A stretch of 36,014 bases of DNA from Parcubacteria group bacterium Gr01-1014_2 (GTDB lineage Bacteria; Patescibacteriota; Minisyncoccia; 2-02-FULL-40-12), in assembly GCA_007376425.1 (NCBI GenBank), contig VMGG01000002.1, positions 1 to 36,014 of the forward strand. The letters are read 5' to 3'. A model generated the notes under the pieces. The model worked only from the letters and a program-made list of their open reading frames with translations. It did no database searches and was not told the DNA's origin. Made by a program: the position numbers and the translations under genes. This document shows, one piece after another, positions 1-26,419 of the stretch (position 1 is its first letter; every line of letters begins with the position of its first letter).

Positions 1-80
1 GTCGGCTCGACTTAGCGCGGGGGTGAAGAAGCTCCCAAGCGTTGGACTGTTCGTCCATTAAAAAGTTACGTGAGCTGGGT
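1..80 (+). rRNA. rrl: 23S rRNA exon (domain V, E. coli ~2505-2584), truncated by window start
   Basis: GTCGGCTC...CTGTTCG...GAGCTGGGT matches the conserved peptidyl-transferase-centre sequence. Confidence 0.97.
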
Positions 81-903
81 AAGTTAAAAAGATGAGCCCA
101 GCATAAACTGACTCATAACGGTAGAGTTCATTATGAAAATTTGATAAAATTATAGTAATGGATAATATCGTGGGAAGACTGAAATCTTTAATTCCGTCAG
201 ATCAGTTTCAACTGATCATAGGTTCATTGATGGGTGATGCTCGTTTAGAGTGTCGTTCAAAGAGTATAAGAGCGAAACATACTGCTCGTTTAAGGATTCA
301 TCAATCCGATAAGCAAAAGGATTATGTGTTTTGGAAGTACCAAATATTGAAAAGTCTTGTCATAAGAGGACCCAGATTTACCAAAGTCTGGCATGACAAG
401 AAAAGAAATAAAAATCATTATTCCTGGTATTTTCATACAATAAGTTCGGAAACATTGGGATTGTTTCATAGATTTTTTTATCGGAACGGAATAAAAATTG
501 TACCGATTGAATTGCTAAAGGAATTAAATCCTTTAGGGTTAGCGATTTGGTACATGGATGATGGATCAAATAATGGCGGCAGCATAACTCTTAATACTCA
601 TTGTTTCTCTGAACAAGAACAGATAGTAATTCAAGATTTATTGAAAAATAAGTTTGGAGTTGTTGCTACTATAGTGAAAGACAGAAACAAATTGAAAATT
701 TGAATCGGCTCTCGCGAGTATCAAAAATTTATTGATCTCGTAAGGCCATATATTCCAGAATCAATGAACTATAAGATTTCAAGTCCCCGTAACGACTTGT
801 CGCTAAATCAGCGGCAGGCGGTGGTTATTTAATCGCCGCAACACGTCAGCTCCGGTGTTCGGAAAAATCGGAGAAGGTATAGTCTAATACACAAATAGTA
901 TTG
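81..903 (+). ncRNA. Group I intron in 23S rRNA at L2584, carrying a LAGLIDADG ORF
   Basis: Exon ends in U80 and pairs with internal guide GCCCAGC (P1 with U.G); R-like CCCGTAACGACT ~786-797; S-like GAAGGTATAGTCT ~873-885; terminal G903; rRNA resumes TCAAACCGT. Confidence 0.9.
158..832 (+). pseudogene. Double-motif LAGLIDADG homing endonuclease (LAGLIDADG_2 type) with in-frame TGA at 701-703
   Basis: Motifs IIGSLMGDA and LAIWYMDDGS; the frame continues after TGA as IGSREYQKFIDLVRPYIPESMNYKI, the usual C-terminus of this family, to TAA 830-832. Confidence 0.85.
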
Positions 904-912
904 TCAAACCGT
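904..912 (+). rRNA. rrl: 9-nt 23S rRNA micro-exon (E. coli 2585-2593)
   Basis: TCAAACCGT fills the gap exactly between GAGCTGGGT and CGTGAGACAG. Confidence 0.9.
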
Positions 913-1039
913 CAATTGAGGCGGCTACACCGAGTAATCGGTGTTAGCAAAATCGACTCATATCGGGGAAATCCTACTTAAATACAACCTGTTTAAGAGG
1001 ATAATCCCGAGGGAAGTCAAAAGTTGTAGATTAAGATAG

Positions 1040-1070
1040 AAAAAGCCCTACACATTTTATGTGAAGGGCT
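1040..1070 (-). terminator. Minus-strand intrinsic terminator inside intron L2593
   Basis: AGCCCT-A-CACAT/ATGTG-A-AGGGCT stem next to A5 (U-tract on minus strand). Confidence 0.55.
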
Positions 1071-1129
1071 ACGACCGGGGCATCAGGTGGCCTGAACTGG
1101 CTACCATATAGCTTGCCGTGTCTAAATAC

Positions 1130-1158
1130 ATGTTAGCATGTAGATAATTTTCTGTCAA
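1130..1158 (-). promoter_or_regulatory. Antisense sigma70-type promoter inside intron L2593
   Basis: Minus strand TTGACA-N17-TAACAT with extended TGn. Confidence 0.55.
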
Positions 1159-1319
1159 TAGATTGCTAAAAAAGCTAGAAAAATCAAGCAATTTTGACCC
1201 CGTAGAGACTCAATCTTTTTTAAAGGATTGGACGAAACAAAAAGTTTCGTAACATGTCGGTCTTCCACATTAGTGGAAGGTGGTATAGTCCATACAACGA
1301 GTAATCGTTGAGAAATATG

Positions 1320-1540
1320 CGTGAGACAGGTTGGTCCTTATCTGGTGTGGGCGCAAAAAGACCTGAGTGGGGTCGCTCCTAGTACGAGAGGACCGGAGTG
1401 AGCGTACCTCTGGTGTACCAGTAGTCCTGCCAAGGGCGTCGCTGGGTAGCTAAGTACGTCAGTGATAAGCGCTGAAAGCATCTAAGCGCGAAGTAAGCGG
1501 GGCAACCCGTTTAGCCGAGAACTACTAATAGACCGATTTT
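1320..1540 (+). rRNA. rrl: 23S rRNA 3' exon (from E. coli 2594), apparently missing ~80 nt of domain VI
   Basis: CGTGAGACAG, sarcin-ricin loop AGTACGAGAGGACC, GCTGAAAGCATCTAAG, TACTAAT; 3' end approximate. Confidence 0.92.
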
Positions 1541-1585
1541 ATTCCCGCACTTTATCTGTTTTCAGTAGAATTAAAAACCAGTGAT

Positions 1586-1700
1586 TTGGTGGTAATACCG
1601 GCGTTGCCCCACCCGTTTCCATTCCGAACACGGAAGTGAAAGACGCCAAGGCCGATGATAGTTTCCCGCTAAGCTGGGTGCGAAAGTAGGTCGCCGCCAA
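1586..1700 (+). rRNA. rrf: 5S rRNA
   Basis: CCATTCCGAACACGGAAGTGAA, GCCGATGATAGT, GAAAGTAGGTCGCCGCC; flanked by 14-bp inverted repeat 1571-1584/1702-1715 (processing stem). Confidence 0.95.
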
Positions 1701-1765
1701 TTCACTGGTTTTTAAATTTGGCGATTATTTGCTCTGTCTTTTCTTTTCTTTTATGATGAAGAAAA

Positions 1766-2521
1766 ATGAAGCGTCTCTTAAAACAAATAGTGGTCGCCGC
1801 CGTATTTTTTATCATAATTGGCTCTGCTATTTATTTTTCTTTTATAAAGGAGACTGCTACTGGACCGACTCTAACGCCGTCGGTTTTTATTCAGCCATTA
1901 GAAATTATTTCTCAAAATATTTTCAAAGTAGCCGATTTGGATTATGATTTTTTAGTTAAAATAAAAAACCCGAATACCGATTTCGGCGCTAGCAATGTTT
2001 CATATGAAGCAGATATTTTTGATCAGGCCGGCAGTTTAATTGTCAGCATTCGAGATTCAATCAGTCTATTGCCCGGCCAGACAAGATATGAAATCATTTC
2101 TCCGATAGAAACCAATCAGGAGATTGCCGATATTATTTTTAAAGTTACTAATGTTGATTGGCAAAAATTAAAAGAATATATTCCCCAGACCCTTTTTTTG
2201 GTTAAAAATCAGGAATACTTTAAATCGGGCCAGGGGTTTCCGAGATTGAAGGTAACTTTATTCAATGACTCTAATTTTGATTTTGACCGGGTCGATGTTT
2301 ATATAGTTTTATTTGGCGAGAATGATAAGATTTTGGCAGTCAATAAAACAGACATAAGGACTTTTTTATCTAGAACCGACAGGTTTTTTGAAGTCAGGTG
2401 GCTAAAATTTTTTGAGGGTGAAGTTAAACGAGTGGAAATTAATGCTTATACCGATGTTTTTAAAAATGAAAATTTCATAAAACAATATGGAATTCAGGAA
2501 AACTTCCAGAAATTTTACTAA
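1766..2521 (+). CDS. Hypothetical membrane-anchored protein with two beta-rich (FxLYD/Ig-like) repeats
   Basis: 251-aa ORF, single N-terminal TM segment, repeated K/N-x-N...V-x-L/F-D/G-x-x-G pattern. Confidence 0.7.
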   Translation: MKRLLKQIVVAAVFFIIIGSAIYFSFIKETATGPTLTPSVFIQPLEIISQNIFKVADLDYDFLVKIKNPNTDFGASNVSYEADIFDQAGSLIVSIRDSISLLPGQTRYEIISPIETNQEIADIIFKVTNVDWQKLKEYIPQTLFLVKNQEYFKSGQGFPRLKVTLFNDSNFDFDRVDVYIVLFGENDKILAVNKTDIRTFLSRTDRFFEVRWLKFFEGEVKRVEINAYTDVFKNENFIKQYGIQENFQKFY

Positions 2522-3620
2522 CCCGGCCAAATCCCTTCAAGGAAGATTTGACTGGGTAAAATTCGACTTCCCTCTTTTCATAGCCATTCTGGGGTTATCT
2601 GTTTTTAGCCTTTTGAATTTGGCCGGCATTTCCGGAATTGAAAGTACTTTTTTTCAAAAGCAGCTCACCTTTTTTATTATTGGGGCAGCCATTTTACTGG
2701 CCAATCCTTTGATTGATTACAGAATTTTTAAAAACTACTCTTTGCCGTCAACAATCTTTTTTATAGCGAGCATTTTGCTTTTGATTATGACTTTGCAAGC
2801 CGCGCCGGTCCGGGGAGTAACGGCTTGGCTTCACTTGCCTTTCGGAGTTTCATTTGAAACATCCGAGTTTGCTAAGCTGGCCATGGTTTTATTTTTGGCC
2901 AGGTATTTCTCTTCAAGAATTTATCTAAATAATATTTCTGCGATTTTAGTCTCCGGCATTTATACTTTCTTAGTTATTTTTTTAGTTTTTCTCCAACCGG
3001 ATTTTGGTTCGGCTATCATTTTATTCTTAATTTGGCTGGGAGGCTTATTTTTATTTGGCTTGACCAAGAGGCAAGTTTTAATAGCGGCTAATTTTTTGAT
3101 CATTACTGTTTTGATTCTCGGCACTTTTGTTCTTGAGCCTTATCAAAAATCAAGGGTTACCTCTTTTTTAGTGAGTTCACTTGGCCAAGGCAGAGAGAGT
3201 TATAATGTTTTACAATCTAAAATAGCTATTGGTTCCGGAGGTTTTTGGGGTTTGGGATTGGGTTCGGGTTCACAGGCTAAATTTGGAATATTGCCGGAAG
3301 CAAATACTGATTTTGCTTTAGCCTCTTTGATAGAGCAATTTGGACTTTTCGCCTTGATTATTATTTTAATACTTTATTTTGTTATTTTGAGCCGTTTATT
3401 TTCTATTGCCGTAAAAGCCAGGGACGGTTTCTCAAAATTTTTCATTTTTATGTTTTCAGTTTATTTTTTTTCCCATGTGGTGATAAATCTTGGAATGAAT
3501 TTAGGCCTTGTTCCAGTTGCTGGCTTACCCCTGCCTTTTATTAGTTATGGAGGTAGTTTTTTAATTAGTTTGATGATTGGTTTTTCTATTTTAGAGAATA
3601 TACGAATAAGGAATCTTTAA
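2487..3620 (+). CDS. rodA: SEDS family peptidoglycan glycosyltransferase RodA/FtsW
   Basis: Polytopic; SEFAKL, LQPDFGS, QSKIAIGSGG, LPEANTDF, LPFISYGGS. Confidence 0.9.
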   Translation: MEFRKTSRNFTNPAKSLQGRFDWVKFDFPLFIAILGLSVFSLLNLAGISGIESTFFQKQLTFFIIGAAILLANPLIDYRIFKNYSLPSTIFFIASILLLIMTLQAAPVRGVTAWLHLPFGVSFETSEFAKLAMVLFLARYFSSRIYLNNISAILVSGIYTFLVIFLVFLQPDFGSAIILFLIWLGGLFLFGLTKRQVLIAANFLIITVLILGTFVLEPYQKSRVTSFLVSSLGQGRESYNVLQSKIAIGSGGFWGLGLGSGSQAKFGILPEANTDFALASLIEQFGLFALIIILILYFVILSRLFSIAVKARDGFSKFFIFMFSVYFFSHVVINLGMNLGLVPVAGLPLPFISYGGSFLISLMIGFSILENIRIRNL

Positions 3621-24622: not shown

Positions 24623-26419
24623 TTATTTTCTGACCCTCTTTGTTTCAATGTACCATTCAGCGACATTTACGAATCTTTCCGAAGGCAGTCCCATGAGATT
24701 AATTTCGAAGCCTTTTATTTTTTTGGCTTGGGGGTAGATGTAGTAAGGGCTGTATAAAAATATTGCCGGGAGATCCTCGATGACTAAATTCTGAAAATCA
24801 TTATATTTATTTGCCCGGATTACCGGGTTCAGCGATTGCCTTGCTTCTTCTAAAAGTTTATCAGCTCCGCTGGCATCATACAAAGCCAAGTTCAAACCAG
24901 GATCTTTTTTTTGGGAAGAATGCCAAAAGCTGAAAGGGTCTGGTTCAATATTTAAAACTTCGCCGAAAAGAAGCATTTGGTAAGTTCTTGGCTGAATATA
25001 ATTTTGCTGGAGTTCAATGACCGAAGCGGTGATTAAATCAATTTTCATTCCAACTGCTTCCCAATCTTTCTTAAGCTCGCCGCCGATAGCGACAAAGTCT
25101 TTTCTTAAAGGGACAACAAGCTGGATTTCCAACAGCCTATCGTCTTTTTCTCTTATTCCATCTCCATTTTTATCCTGCCAGCCCGAGTTTTCTAAAATTT
25201 GCCTCACAAAATCAGGATTATAATCGTATTTTTTGACGCTGTTTTCAAAGTCATCGAATATTTCAGGAAGAATAGGAGAATCAACCTTGAAACCGCGTCC
25301 ATAGATGCTTTCAATAATTTTATCCTTATTGACGGAATGAGCCAAGGCTAATCGAACATTTTTATCCGAAAGAACTTCGCTTTGGTTTTGGTTGAAAAAT
25401 ACGGCAAAGTATCTTGGAATTTTAAGCTCGTTAATTTTAACTTTTCCCGGAAACCTTAAGCCACTCAAGTTGTTTGGGCTAATTCCGGCTAGACTTTCCA
25501 CCCCGCTTAAATTGAAAGCCTGAATTAAATCTTCTTCACTGGTGTAAAAATTGAAATTTATCGATTCAATAAACGGGCCGTCCAAATAATAATTTTCATT
25601 GGCTGCCAGTTCGTAAGAAGTAATCCGTCCAAGCCTGTCTTTTTTTAATTTGAAAAATTTGTAAGGCCCGGTGCCAATTGGTTTTAGATTCAATTCGGAA
25701 AGAATAAAGTTCCCTGCCTTTATCTCTTTCCATAAATGGCTAGGTATTATTCCCAGGCTTAAGTTATTTATAAATTGGGCGTAAGGATTCTTAAGCCTGA
25801 ATTCAAGAGTCAGATCATCAATTTTTACTGTTTCTACTCCTTGCCAGTTAATTCTTTGGGGACTTGCAAAATCCTGGTTCTGGGCAATTTTCACCGTAAA
25901 AATAATGTCGTCAGCCGAAAAATTAATGCCGTCATGCCATTTTATGTTCTTTCTTAAATTGAAGCGATAGACAAGGCCATCATCGGAGATGCTGAAACTT
26001 TCAGCTAAATCAGAAATGAAATTTCCTTGGCCGTCATTTTTTAAAAGACCCGAGTAAATTAATTGGGCTAAATCTCGGTCAGTGTCAGTCTGTAAAAGCA
26101 AAGGGTTAATGAATCGGGGTTCGCCAATTAACCCTTCAGTGAATTCCCCCCCAAAATCAGGCTTGGCTTCAGTAATATTGAAATAATAACCTATCAGAAT
26201 GGCAAAGATAGAGCCGATAATTACCAGTGAGAGCCCGAGGATGATATATCTTTCTCTTTTAGATAAAAGTTTAGCCAGATATATTATCCGCTTTTTTTCA
26301 GGAAGAAAACTTTTCAGATATTTTTTCAGGAGGTTTTTTGTCTTCTTCCCAAAACTTTCTTTCTTGGAAGGTTTTTGACCCAAGCCTCCGGAATACAAAA
26401 ATTCAAGATCATCAGCCAA
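24623..26419 (-). CDS. Family 5 ABC transporter substrate-binding protein (OppA/DppA-like)
   Basis: LAESFSISDDGLVYRFNLR, WHDG, PIGTGPYK; start uncertain (TTG 26419 preferred because 26488-26420 is a repeat array). Confidence 0.88.
   Translation of the reverse strand: MADDLEFLYSGGLGQKPSKKESFGKKTKNLLKKYLKSFLPEKKRIIYLAKLLSKRERYIILGLSLVIIGSIFAILIGYYFNITEAKPDFGGEFTEGLIGEPRFINPLLLQTDTDRDLAQLIYSGLLKNDGQGNFISDLAESFSISDDGLVYRFNLRKNIKWHDGINFSADDIIFTVKIAQNQDFASPQRINWQGVETVKIDDLTLEFRLKNPYAQFINNLSLGIIPSHLWKEIKAGNFILSELNLKPIGTGPYKFFKLKKDRLGRITSYELAANENYYLDGPFIESINFNFYTSEEDLIQAFNLSGVESLAGISPNNLSGLRFPGKVKINELKIPRYFAVFFNQNQSEVLSDKNVRLALAHSVNKDKIIESIYGRGFKVDSPILPEIFDDFENSVKKYDYNPDFVRQILENSGWQDKNGDGIREKDDRLLEIQLVVPLRKDFVAIGGELKKDWEAVGMKIDLITASVIELQQNYIQPRTYQMLLFGEVLNIEPDPFSFWHSSQKKDPGLNLALYDASGADKLLEEARQSLNPVIRANKYNDFQNLVIEDLPAIFLYSPYYIYPQAKKIKGFEINLMGLPSERFVNVAEWYIETKRVRK

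Follow-up and report, generated by a model that had tools for sequence, protein, structure and literature searches.

A putative antisense transcription unit in the P6 loop of an ORF-less 23S rRNA intron, with related cassettes in other Patescibacteria

Two introns in the 23S rRNA gene

In the usual picture, a group I intron is either empty or bears a homing endonuclease gene on its own strand. The locus analysed here, in the genome of Parcubacteria group bacterium Gr01-1014_2 (uncultured, from groundwater; 545-kb assembly, 40% GC), raises the question of what occupies an intron that holds no such gene and appears instead to contain an independent, backward-facing unit. The initial annotation had placed there an antisense small-RNA unit consisting of a promoter, a folded RNA and a terminator. 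The window, i.e. the whole stretch of 36,014 nt that was analysed, starts in the interior of the 23S rRNA gene, with Rfam matches to the LSU models at 3-78 and 1370-1498 and to 5S rRNA downstream. The 23S rRNA gene is interrupted by two introns, A and B, which flank a mini-exon (Table 1).

In relatives without intron A, the upstream exon joins directly to a 9-nt stretch identical to the mini-exon, followed by an intron homologous to intron B that ends right before the conserved downstream exon. By direct reading, two bases of the mini-exon pair with two altered bases downstream (about 1330-1332), and the changes at both places relative to the common bacterial sequence preserve the pairing in a helix of the peptidyl-transferase region, which we take to be H93. 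Intron A contains a LAGLIDADG_2 endonuclease ORF interrupted by an in-frame TGA at 701-703, after which the frame is open to 832. TGA is a stop codon in the host genome, as seen from long ORFs under translation table 11; the GroEL encoded there shows 78-81% identity to that of MAGs titled Patescibacteria or Saccharibacteria. Since the codon is GGA or GCA in contigs of relatives, and L009 reads through, the endonuclease gene is freshly broken in the window strain.

Table 1 Features of the intron-bearing part of the 23S rRNA gene (window coordinates; features on the minus strand are predicted)
Feature	Position	Strand	Evidence and remarks
23S exon, upstream	to 81	+	
Intron A, group I	82-903	+	Last base G903; absent from relatives L002, L003, L004, L006, L007, L011
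LAGLIDADG_2 endonuclease ORF in intron A	158-700	+	Pfam LAGLIDADG_2, 132.5 bits
23S mini-exon, 9 nt, between both introns	904-912	+	Contiguous with the upstream exon in relatives lacking intron A
Intron B, ORF-less group I with P7.1/P7.2-type extra hairpins	913-1319	+	Boundaries from alignment of relatives; last base G1319
P6 stem, 5' strand	1011-1026	+	Pairs with 1189-1201; forms in fold of 1005-1204
P6 loop insert, putative antisense cassette	1027-1188		Hypervariable among homologous introns
U5 tract of terminator	1040-1044	-	Direct reading
Terminator hairpin	1045-1070	-	-12.7 kcal/mol; 11-pair stem with one mismatch
12-codon ORF and stop	1069-1107	-	No Shine-Dalgarno match upstream
RNA body, long irregular hairpin	1073-1122	-	-17.2 to -18.6 kcal/mol on the minus strand
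Predicted transcription start	1122-1123	-	Purine 7-8 nt past the -10 box; usual sigma-70 geometry
Extended -10: TG (1138-1137), one base, TAACAT (1135-1130)	1130-1138	-	Direct reading and promoter scan
-35 box TTGACA	1153-1158	-	Direct reading and promoter scan; homologous to L088, L212 and L182 modules
P6 stem, 3' strand	1189-1201	+	Fold of 1005-1204 and direct reading
23S exon, downstream	from 1320	+	
5S rRNA	1585-1702		Rfam match

For intron B, the Rfam model RF00028 (group I) gives a match at 903-1311 with 26.4 bits (E 1e-4 to 3e-4), below the gathering score of 50; the relatives bearing comparable cassettes likewise score 25-38 bits. Direct reading reveals a U912.G921 pair at the 5' splice site, the terminal G and a P1-P9 core, as well as two extra hairpins between P7 and P3, whose helix assignments were also made by direct reading. 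Ligation of the exons restores the conserved rRNA, and the boundaries agree with those in relatives carrying the intron B type alone. With its splice-site U.G pair, terminal G and P3-P9 core, intron B reads as a group I intron and is predicted to be self-splicing. Its insertion site is presumably L2593 in E. coli numbering.

The intron B core is conserved in 11 of 60 relatives (BLAST), with matches confined to intron positions 1-125 (mostly 1-106) and 337-407 and the loop between them unmatched. That loop caps P6, just upstream of the R element, and holds the candidate unit on the minus strand, whereas the rRNA lies on the plus strand. The host is thus an ORF-less group I intron and the unit sits in a peripheral region, oriented against the rRNA operon, as the initial annotation had proposed. 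Contigs from two sequencing runs of the study that includes the likely source sample are identical to the window over 949-1210 and 980-1202, with no variation in the unit, and in the contig of a more distant relative the match ends at 1019, where P6 starts.

Promoter, terminator and predicted RNA

The minus-strand promoter described earlier (TTGACA-N17-TAACAT with extended TG) was recovered both by direct reading and by the promoter scanner, which ranks it as the top promoter-like site on both strands of window positions 1-3000. The -35 box matches the consensus at 6/6 positions and the -10 box at 4/6 (10/12 over both hexamers), and the spacer measures 17 nt. With hexamers at 17 ± 1 nt and the TG, 1158-1130 (minus) has the make-up of a sigma-70-type promoter. 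The spacing from the -10 box to the hairpin with its U5 tract is about 83 nt on the minus strand. This stem-and-U5 terminator is also present as first described, and as a GC-containing hairpin directly before a U-run, 1070-1040 (minus) has the form of an intrinsic terminator. The consensus terminator scanner missed the hairpin because its stem has one internal mismatch. Viewed on the plus strand, the A5 run comes ahead of the hairpin and the element therefore cannot stop rRNA transcription.

Both motifs are real and not products of chance. The strict motif, defined as an exact TTGACA, a spacer of 16-18 nt, a -10 box matching at 4/6 positions or more and the TG, occurs at 12 sites in the 545-kb genome against 1.0 ± 0.9 expected from Markov shuffles; dropping the TG requirement gives 57 sites against 19.2 ± 4.9. 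All but one of the 12 strict sites fall outside crude ORFs, and the 11 sites other than that of the window lie upstream of genes (a GTPase, two sigma-factor-like paralogs and small ORFs with ribosome-binding sites) or of tiny promoter-terminator units. In 4000 shuffles of the strand of the 185-nt insert, a promoter of such grade arose 17 times, a terminator once and both together never.

Two further places with such promoters were noted. On contig C10 of the host genome (G000; minus strand, about 25004-25200 of the reverse-complemented contig), outside any intron, there are two tandem consensus promoters, and a hairpin with a T-run lies no more than about 60 nt past either of them, forming tiny promoter-terminator units. 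On contigs C14 (about 4847, plus) and C33 (about 23102, minus, reverse-complemented offset) of the same genome, strict TG promoters precede similar, apparently non-coding sequences, a pair that may represent a duplicated small RNA gene.

The motifs of the initial annotation thus stood, while the fold that it had drawn between them did not. Its three-way junction can be drawn from three short stems and is energetically disfavoured, at -10.6 kcal/mol against -18.6 kcal/mol for a single long irregular hairpin (1122-1073). The minus-strand fold of 1036-1128 is more stable than expected from random sequence (z -3.9).

The plus strand folds better still. The main hairpin reaches -21.7 kcal/mol on the plus and -17.2 kcal/mol on the minus strand, two of its pairs being G.U on the plus strand and mismatches on the minus strand, and the P6 domain as a whole folds at -65.1 kcal/mol (z -5.8) on the plus strand against -54.0 kcal/mol (z -3.1) on the minus strand. 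A 9-bp helix of the plus strand (1033-1041/1148-1156) takes in the A-run and part of the promoter region, whose letters therefore also have a structural reading. The insert could accordingly be a peripheral P6 extension of the ribozyme and nothing else, with the promoter and terminator letters of the opposite strand as by-products. The clearly better plus-strand fold, a compact multi-helix junction closed by the 9-bp helix, speaks for this explanation, as does P6 being the usual site of peripheral helices. It is at odds with the promoter motif, which is 12-fold enriched genome-wide and stands elsewhere ahead of transcription units. Judged from the predicted folds, a structural role of the sense strand and an antisense unit may also coexist.

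The unit does contain the 12-codon ORF pointed out before. It does not make a convincing gene, lacking a Shine-Dalgarno match upstream, and is probably not translated. No toxin-like small hydrophobic ORF was found within the unit, and nothing in the analysis points to the antitoxin-like role that had been suggested.

A search for the segment in other introns and in non-intron loci had been proposed as well. The cargo itself, i.e. the sequence between promoter and terminator, has no homolog in the genomes and metagenomes searched. In a search of both strands of 1027-1188 against Rfam 15 at E values up to 10, the intron model alone matched. A blastn search of the same segment in 105 genomes of the order returned short chance matches only, the best being 25 nt long (E 8.9e-4). 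An exact 27-mer of the cargo was absent from the genome contig collection searched, and metagenome scans for cargo anchors and for the window-type P6 strand gave 0 matches each. A scan for the extended -35 context retrieved only the introns L077, L088 and L248, together with two chance matches. The best blastn match lies in a different genome of the order (L016, G063:C26, 814-838) and is an intergenic promoter of the ordinary kind; it has 23 of 25 bases in common with the -35 region of the window and its flanks, which hints at a strong-promoter context common in these bacteria.

P6 loops and antisense cassettes in related introns

Introns sharing the P5/P4/P6 motif were collected as at least 120 matches, from which 80 loci were taken, 67 of them with a resolvable loop. 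Together with eight relatives and the window, this gave 76 loops, 55 of which are at least 80 nt long. Loop length varies from 13 to 597 nt among the 67 introns sampled from the matches listed. An I-CreI-like endonuclease gene lies on the sense strand in 33 of the 55 longer loops of this sample from the matches listed. Three relatives (L006, L007 and L010) have a LAGLIDADG_1 gene in the very P6 loop. The remaining loops are diverse; besides the endonuclease gene, P6 holds a short hairpin or other cargo in relatives. Yet another type of cargo was observed in L090, L094, L114, L074 and L061, namely small sense-strand ORFs of about 52-89 codons that do not encode endonucleases and lack a dedicated promoter and terminator.

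The prevalence of the endonuclease gene, and its persistence as a C-terminal remnant in L011 (E 3e-5), suggest a different origin for the window insert, as the decayed remnant of such a sense-strand gene. An alignment by eye lent this some substance: one frame of the last 60 nt has three residues and the stop position in common with the end of the gene. That common end overlaps the conserved P6 stem, however, and is hence not independent; a further 12-nt identity concerns a single relative, and tblastn with the L006 endonuclease against the window insert returned nothing even at E 10. The candidate remnant was therefore discarded, and we regard this origin as highly improbable. The initial annotation had also considered the remnant of a lost cargo gene, and on the sense strand that suggestion is not supported.

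In the same unselected sample from the matches listed, a strict promoter-then-terminator unit is found on the minus strand of four of the 55 loops (window, L009, L077 and L088), on the plus strand of none (0/55) and in none of the endonuclease-bearing loops (0/33). In L101, a terminator and a weaker promoter flank an ORF of 26 codons that has a ribosome-binding site. Further cassettes came from a motif-selected scan, namely L248, L188, L212, L185, L172/L227, L159, L182 and L169; these eight were found with a pattern that requires a -35 box near the R element, and their count is therefore uninformative on frequency. This gapped pattern yielded mostly chance matches in unrelated bacteria, and only 14 of the loci retained had an intron core. 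Taken together, at least 12 other introns of uncultured Patescibacteria display, as read from their sequences, an antisense promoter/terminator layout in P6.

This layout is recurrent. In the window and in L009, L077, L088, L248, L188, L212, L172, L159, L182 and L169, a -35 box lies 30-49 nt from the R-proximal edge of the loop (43 nt in the window), and a strong hairpin with a run of 4-8 T adjoins the opposite P6 strand. In most of these cassettes the frame surrounds a Shine-Dalgarno sequence with an ORF of 35-85 codons (26-85 over all cassettes), which from the translations is hydrophobic in L009, L077, L172, L182 and L188, while several other cargos are hydrophilic or non-coding. L248 resembles the window in being ORF-less, with a predicted RNA of about 85 nt, and L088 also lacks a convincing ORF. 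The window cassette has its 12-codon ORF only and, at 185 nt, is the shortest of 13 inserts.

The host sites vary as well and are not all L2593: L088 lies elsewhere in a 23S gene, and L188 and L212 adjoin 16S matches. A LAGLIDADG-like ORF was seen further downstream within the cassette-bearing introns L188, L212 and L185, so that a single intron can hold both an endonuclease gene and an antisense cassette.

The cargos are not recognizably related to each other or to known families. All-against-all blastn of the cargos gave similarity confined to the P6 stems. None of ten cassette ORFs reached the curated cut-off of any Pfam family, PADLOC gave a single weak match among the cassette ORFs (E 0.023), and Rfam recognized no RNA in seven cassette loci beyond the rRNA and intron models. 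The L077 ORF found no credible relative in 401 genomes of the phylum: there were just three weak matches (E above 1e-3), of which two fell within long ORFs, and the third lay in a frame of 70 aa interrupted by a stop.

In contrast to the cargo, the promoter module has relatives. Against L088 the window module scored 32, with a null of 15.1 ± 2.4 and none of 500 shuffles as high. Against L212 it scored 31 (0/500 shuffles), and the match includes the spacer, which is unconstrained by the consensus; against L182 it scored 24 (1/500). For the other 9 of the 12 cassettes compared, similarity to the window promoter was not significant. Across three intron lineages, conservation spans the P6 stem and the -35 box, fails in the cargo and returns at the T-run, and between L088 and L248 it extends through the -10 box; the frame is therefore kept while its content differs. 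Stems retained in homologous introns that had lost the promoter boxes and U-tract had been named beforehand as the pattern speaking against an independent unit. The reverse was seen, promoter and U-tract being shared and the internal stems not. Related introns hold complete antisense mini-genes at the equivalent place, which fits the independent cargo proposed at the outset.

These comparisons bear directly on the purely structural explanation of the window insert. In its favour, neither a promoter nor a terminator was called on the plus or minus strand of one long P6 insert, that of L002, which by direct reading is a GC-rich hairpin. The window promoter, however, is homologous to those of cassettes driving ORFs with ribosome-binding sites, and all strict units lie on the minus strand (4, as opposed to none on the plus strand, in the 55 loops sampled from the matches listed). 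P6 inserts are otherwise free in sequence and length, so folding leaves the conserved promoter unexplained. A role in sense-strand structure alone is on balance quite unlikely.

The scarcity of coding content in the window raises another explanation, a relic. An antisense mini-gene cassette would have lost its ORF while its promoter and terminator survive and may still fire, yielding an RNA without a function of its own; on the antisense strand, the earlier suggestion of a lost cargo gene is thus possible. Where most cassettes hold a ribosome-binding site and an ORF, the window has just 12 codons and no such site, its insert is the shortest of the set, its cargo is an orphan, and the other mobile gene at this locus, the intron A endonuclease, is also broken. 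On the other hand, the RNA body is a stable 50-nt hairpin, unlike the outcome of random ORF decay, the ORF-less L248 provides a second cassette of equal size, and the promoter is still near-consensus. A relic accordingly seems to us possible, if rather unlikely.

We lean, with some reserve, towards reading the P6 loop of this ORF-less L2593 intron as a self-contained antisense transcription unit that belongs to a recurrent class of cassettes in rRNA introns of Patescibacteria. The best reading of the window copy is an antisense cassette predicted to make a cis-antisense RNA, perhaps as a minimal or stripped-down member of the class, since a small ORF and its ribosome-binding site are present in most of its relatives.

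Proposed mechanism and known systems

From the features described above we infer transcription of the unit, its start and end points, duplex formation and a physiological role. The near-consensus sigma-70-type promoter would fire head-on into the rRNA operon, and RNA polymerase would make a product of about 83 nt, from about 1123 to 1040. Transcription would halt at the intrinsic terminator just short of the P6 stem and hence never reach the ribozyme core, while the sense-strand reading of the same element, an A-run followed by a hairpin, would leave rRNA transcription unharmed. The product is predicted to be non-coding and perfectly complementary to the P6 loop of the intron, full complementarity to the intron RNA following from the geometry of the locus. 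Cis action on the pre-23S rRNA or the excised intron RNA is therefore expected, and pairing there would yield a duplex for RNase III, the gene for which the genome contains. Antisense output is expected to be coupled inversely to rRNA transcription, by occlusion of the promoter and titration of the RNA.

A more speculative extension, unlikely as it stands, treats the P6 loops of Patescibacteria as an antisense expression platform, in which the intron RNA, produced as fast as the rRNA itself, would serve as a built-in antisense repressor and the cargo would be released only upon a fall in rRNA synthesis or loss of the intron. If so, a conserved promoter/terminator frame would hold exchangeable cargo, either small membrane peptides or small RNAs like that of the window. 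The platform could then work as a growth-state sensor or as an addiction module akin to type I toxin-antitoxin systems, and would explain how introns without an endonuclease are retained in the one rRNA operon that these bacteria have. In type I pairs such as hok/sok and tisB/istR, an antisense RNA overlaps the mRNA of a small, usually hydrophobic, toxic peptide. The likeness lies in the two fully complementary RNAs predicted for the window locus and in the short ORFs of related cassettes, several of which are hydrophobic; the abundant sense RNA, here the intron within the pre-rRNA, would be a natural repressor. Unlike type I systems, the window unit lacks a toxin-like ORF, and several related cargos are hydrophilic or non-coding. 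In the literature searched, no record returned for 'group I intron' combined with 'type I toxin-antitoxin' had either term in its title or abstract, and the titles were off-topic.

Many uncultured Patescibacteria have the frame in introns at several rRNA sites, enclosing small ORFs or small RNAs that are unrelated to one another, which points to an apparently undescribed way for small genes to travel in rRNA introns. Antisense cargo is a possible reason for the persistence of 'ORF-less' introns, and surveys that label such introns as ORF-less or non-coding would miss part of their content. At this locus, the unit would provide a natural sense/antisense pair linked to the operon that the cell transcribes most heavily.

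Among known systems, the closest are the homing endonuclease genes in P6 of L2593 introns (I-CreI type), which the window unit resembles in the kind of intron that hosts it, in the insertion site and in the loop that holds the cargo. Those genes lie on the sense strand, have no promoter or terminator of their own and encode a protein, whereas the window unit is antisense, has its own putative promoter and terminator and encodes no protein. For the candidate phyla radiation (CPR), position 2593 of the 23S rRNA gene is described as a site of LAGLIDADG_1-bearing insertions, with ORF-less and degenerate insertions at the same sites and 222 ORF-less group I introns counted in 23S genes (Tsurumaki et al. 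2024, PMC11270868); its main text uses neither 'antisense' nor 'promoter'. By title or the beginning of the abstract, none of the literature searched concerns a bacterial antisense promoter/terminator unit in a group I intron, and antisense cassettes in bacterial rRNA introns are, as a class, apparently undescribed so far. Antisense cargo as such has a precedent in the homing endonuclease genes of nuclear rDNA group I introns at L2066 in fungi and protists (PMC9548176), which likewise lie opposite the rRNA strand inside a group I intron. The hosts there are nuclear introns of eukaryotes, the endonuclease is of the His-Cys box type, and expression uses eukaryotic signals. The cassettes considered here are, in contrast, bacterial, with a predicted sigma-70 promoter and intrinsic terminator framing small unrelated ORFs or a non-coding RNA.
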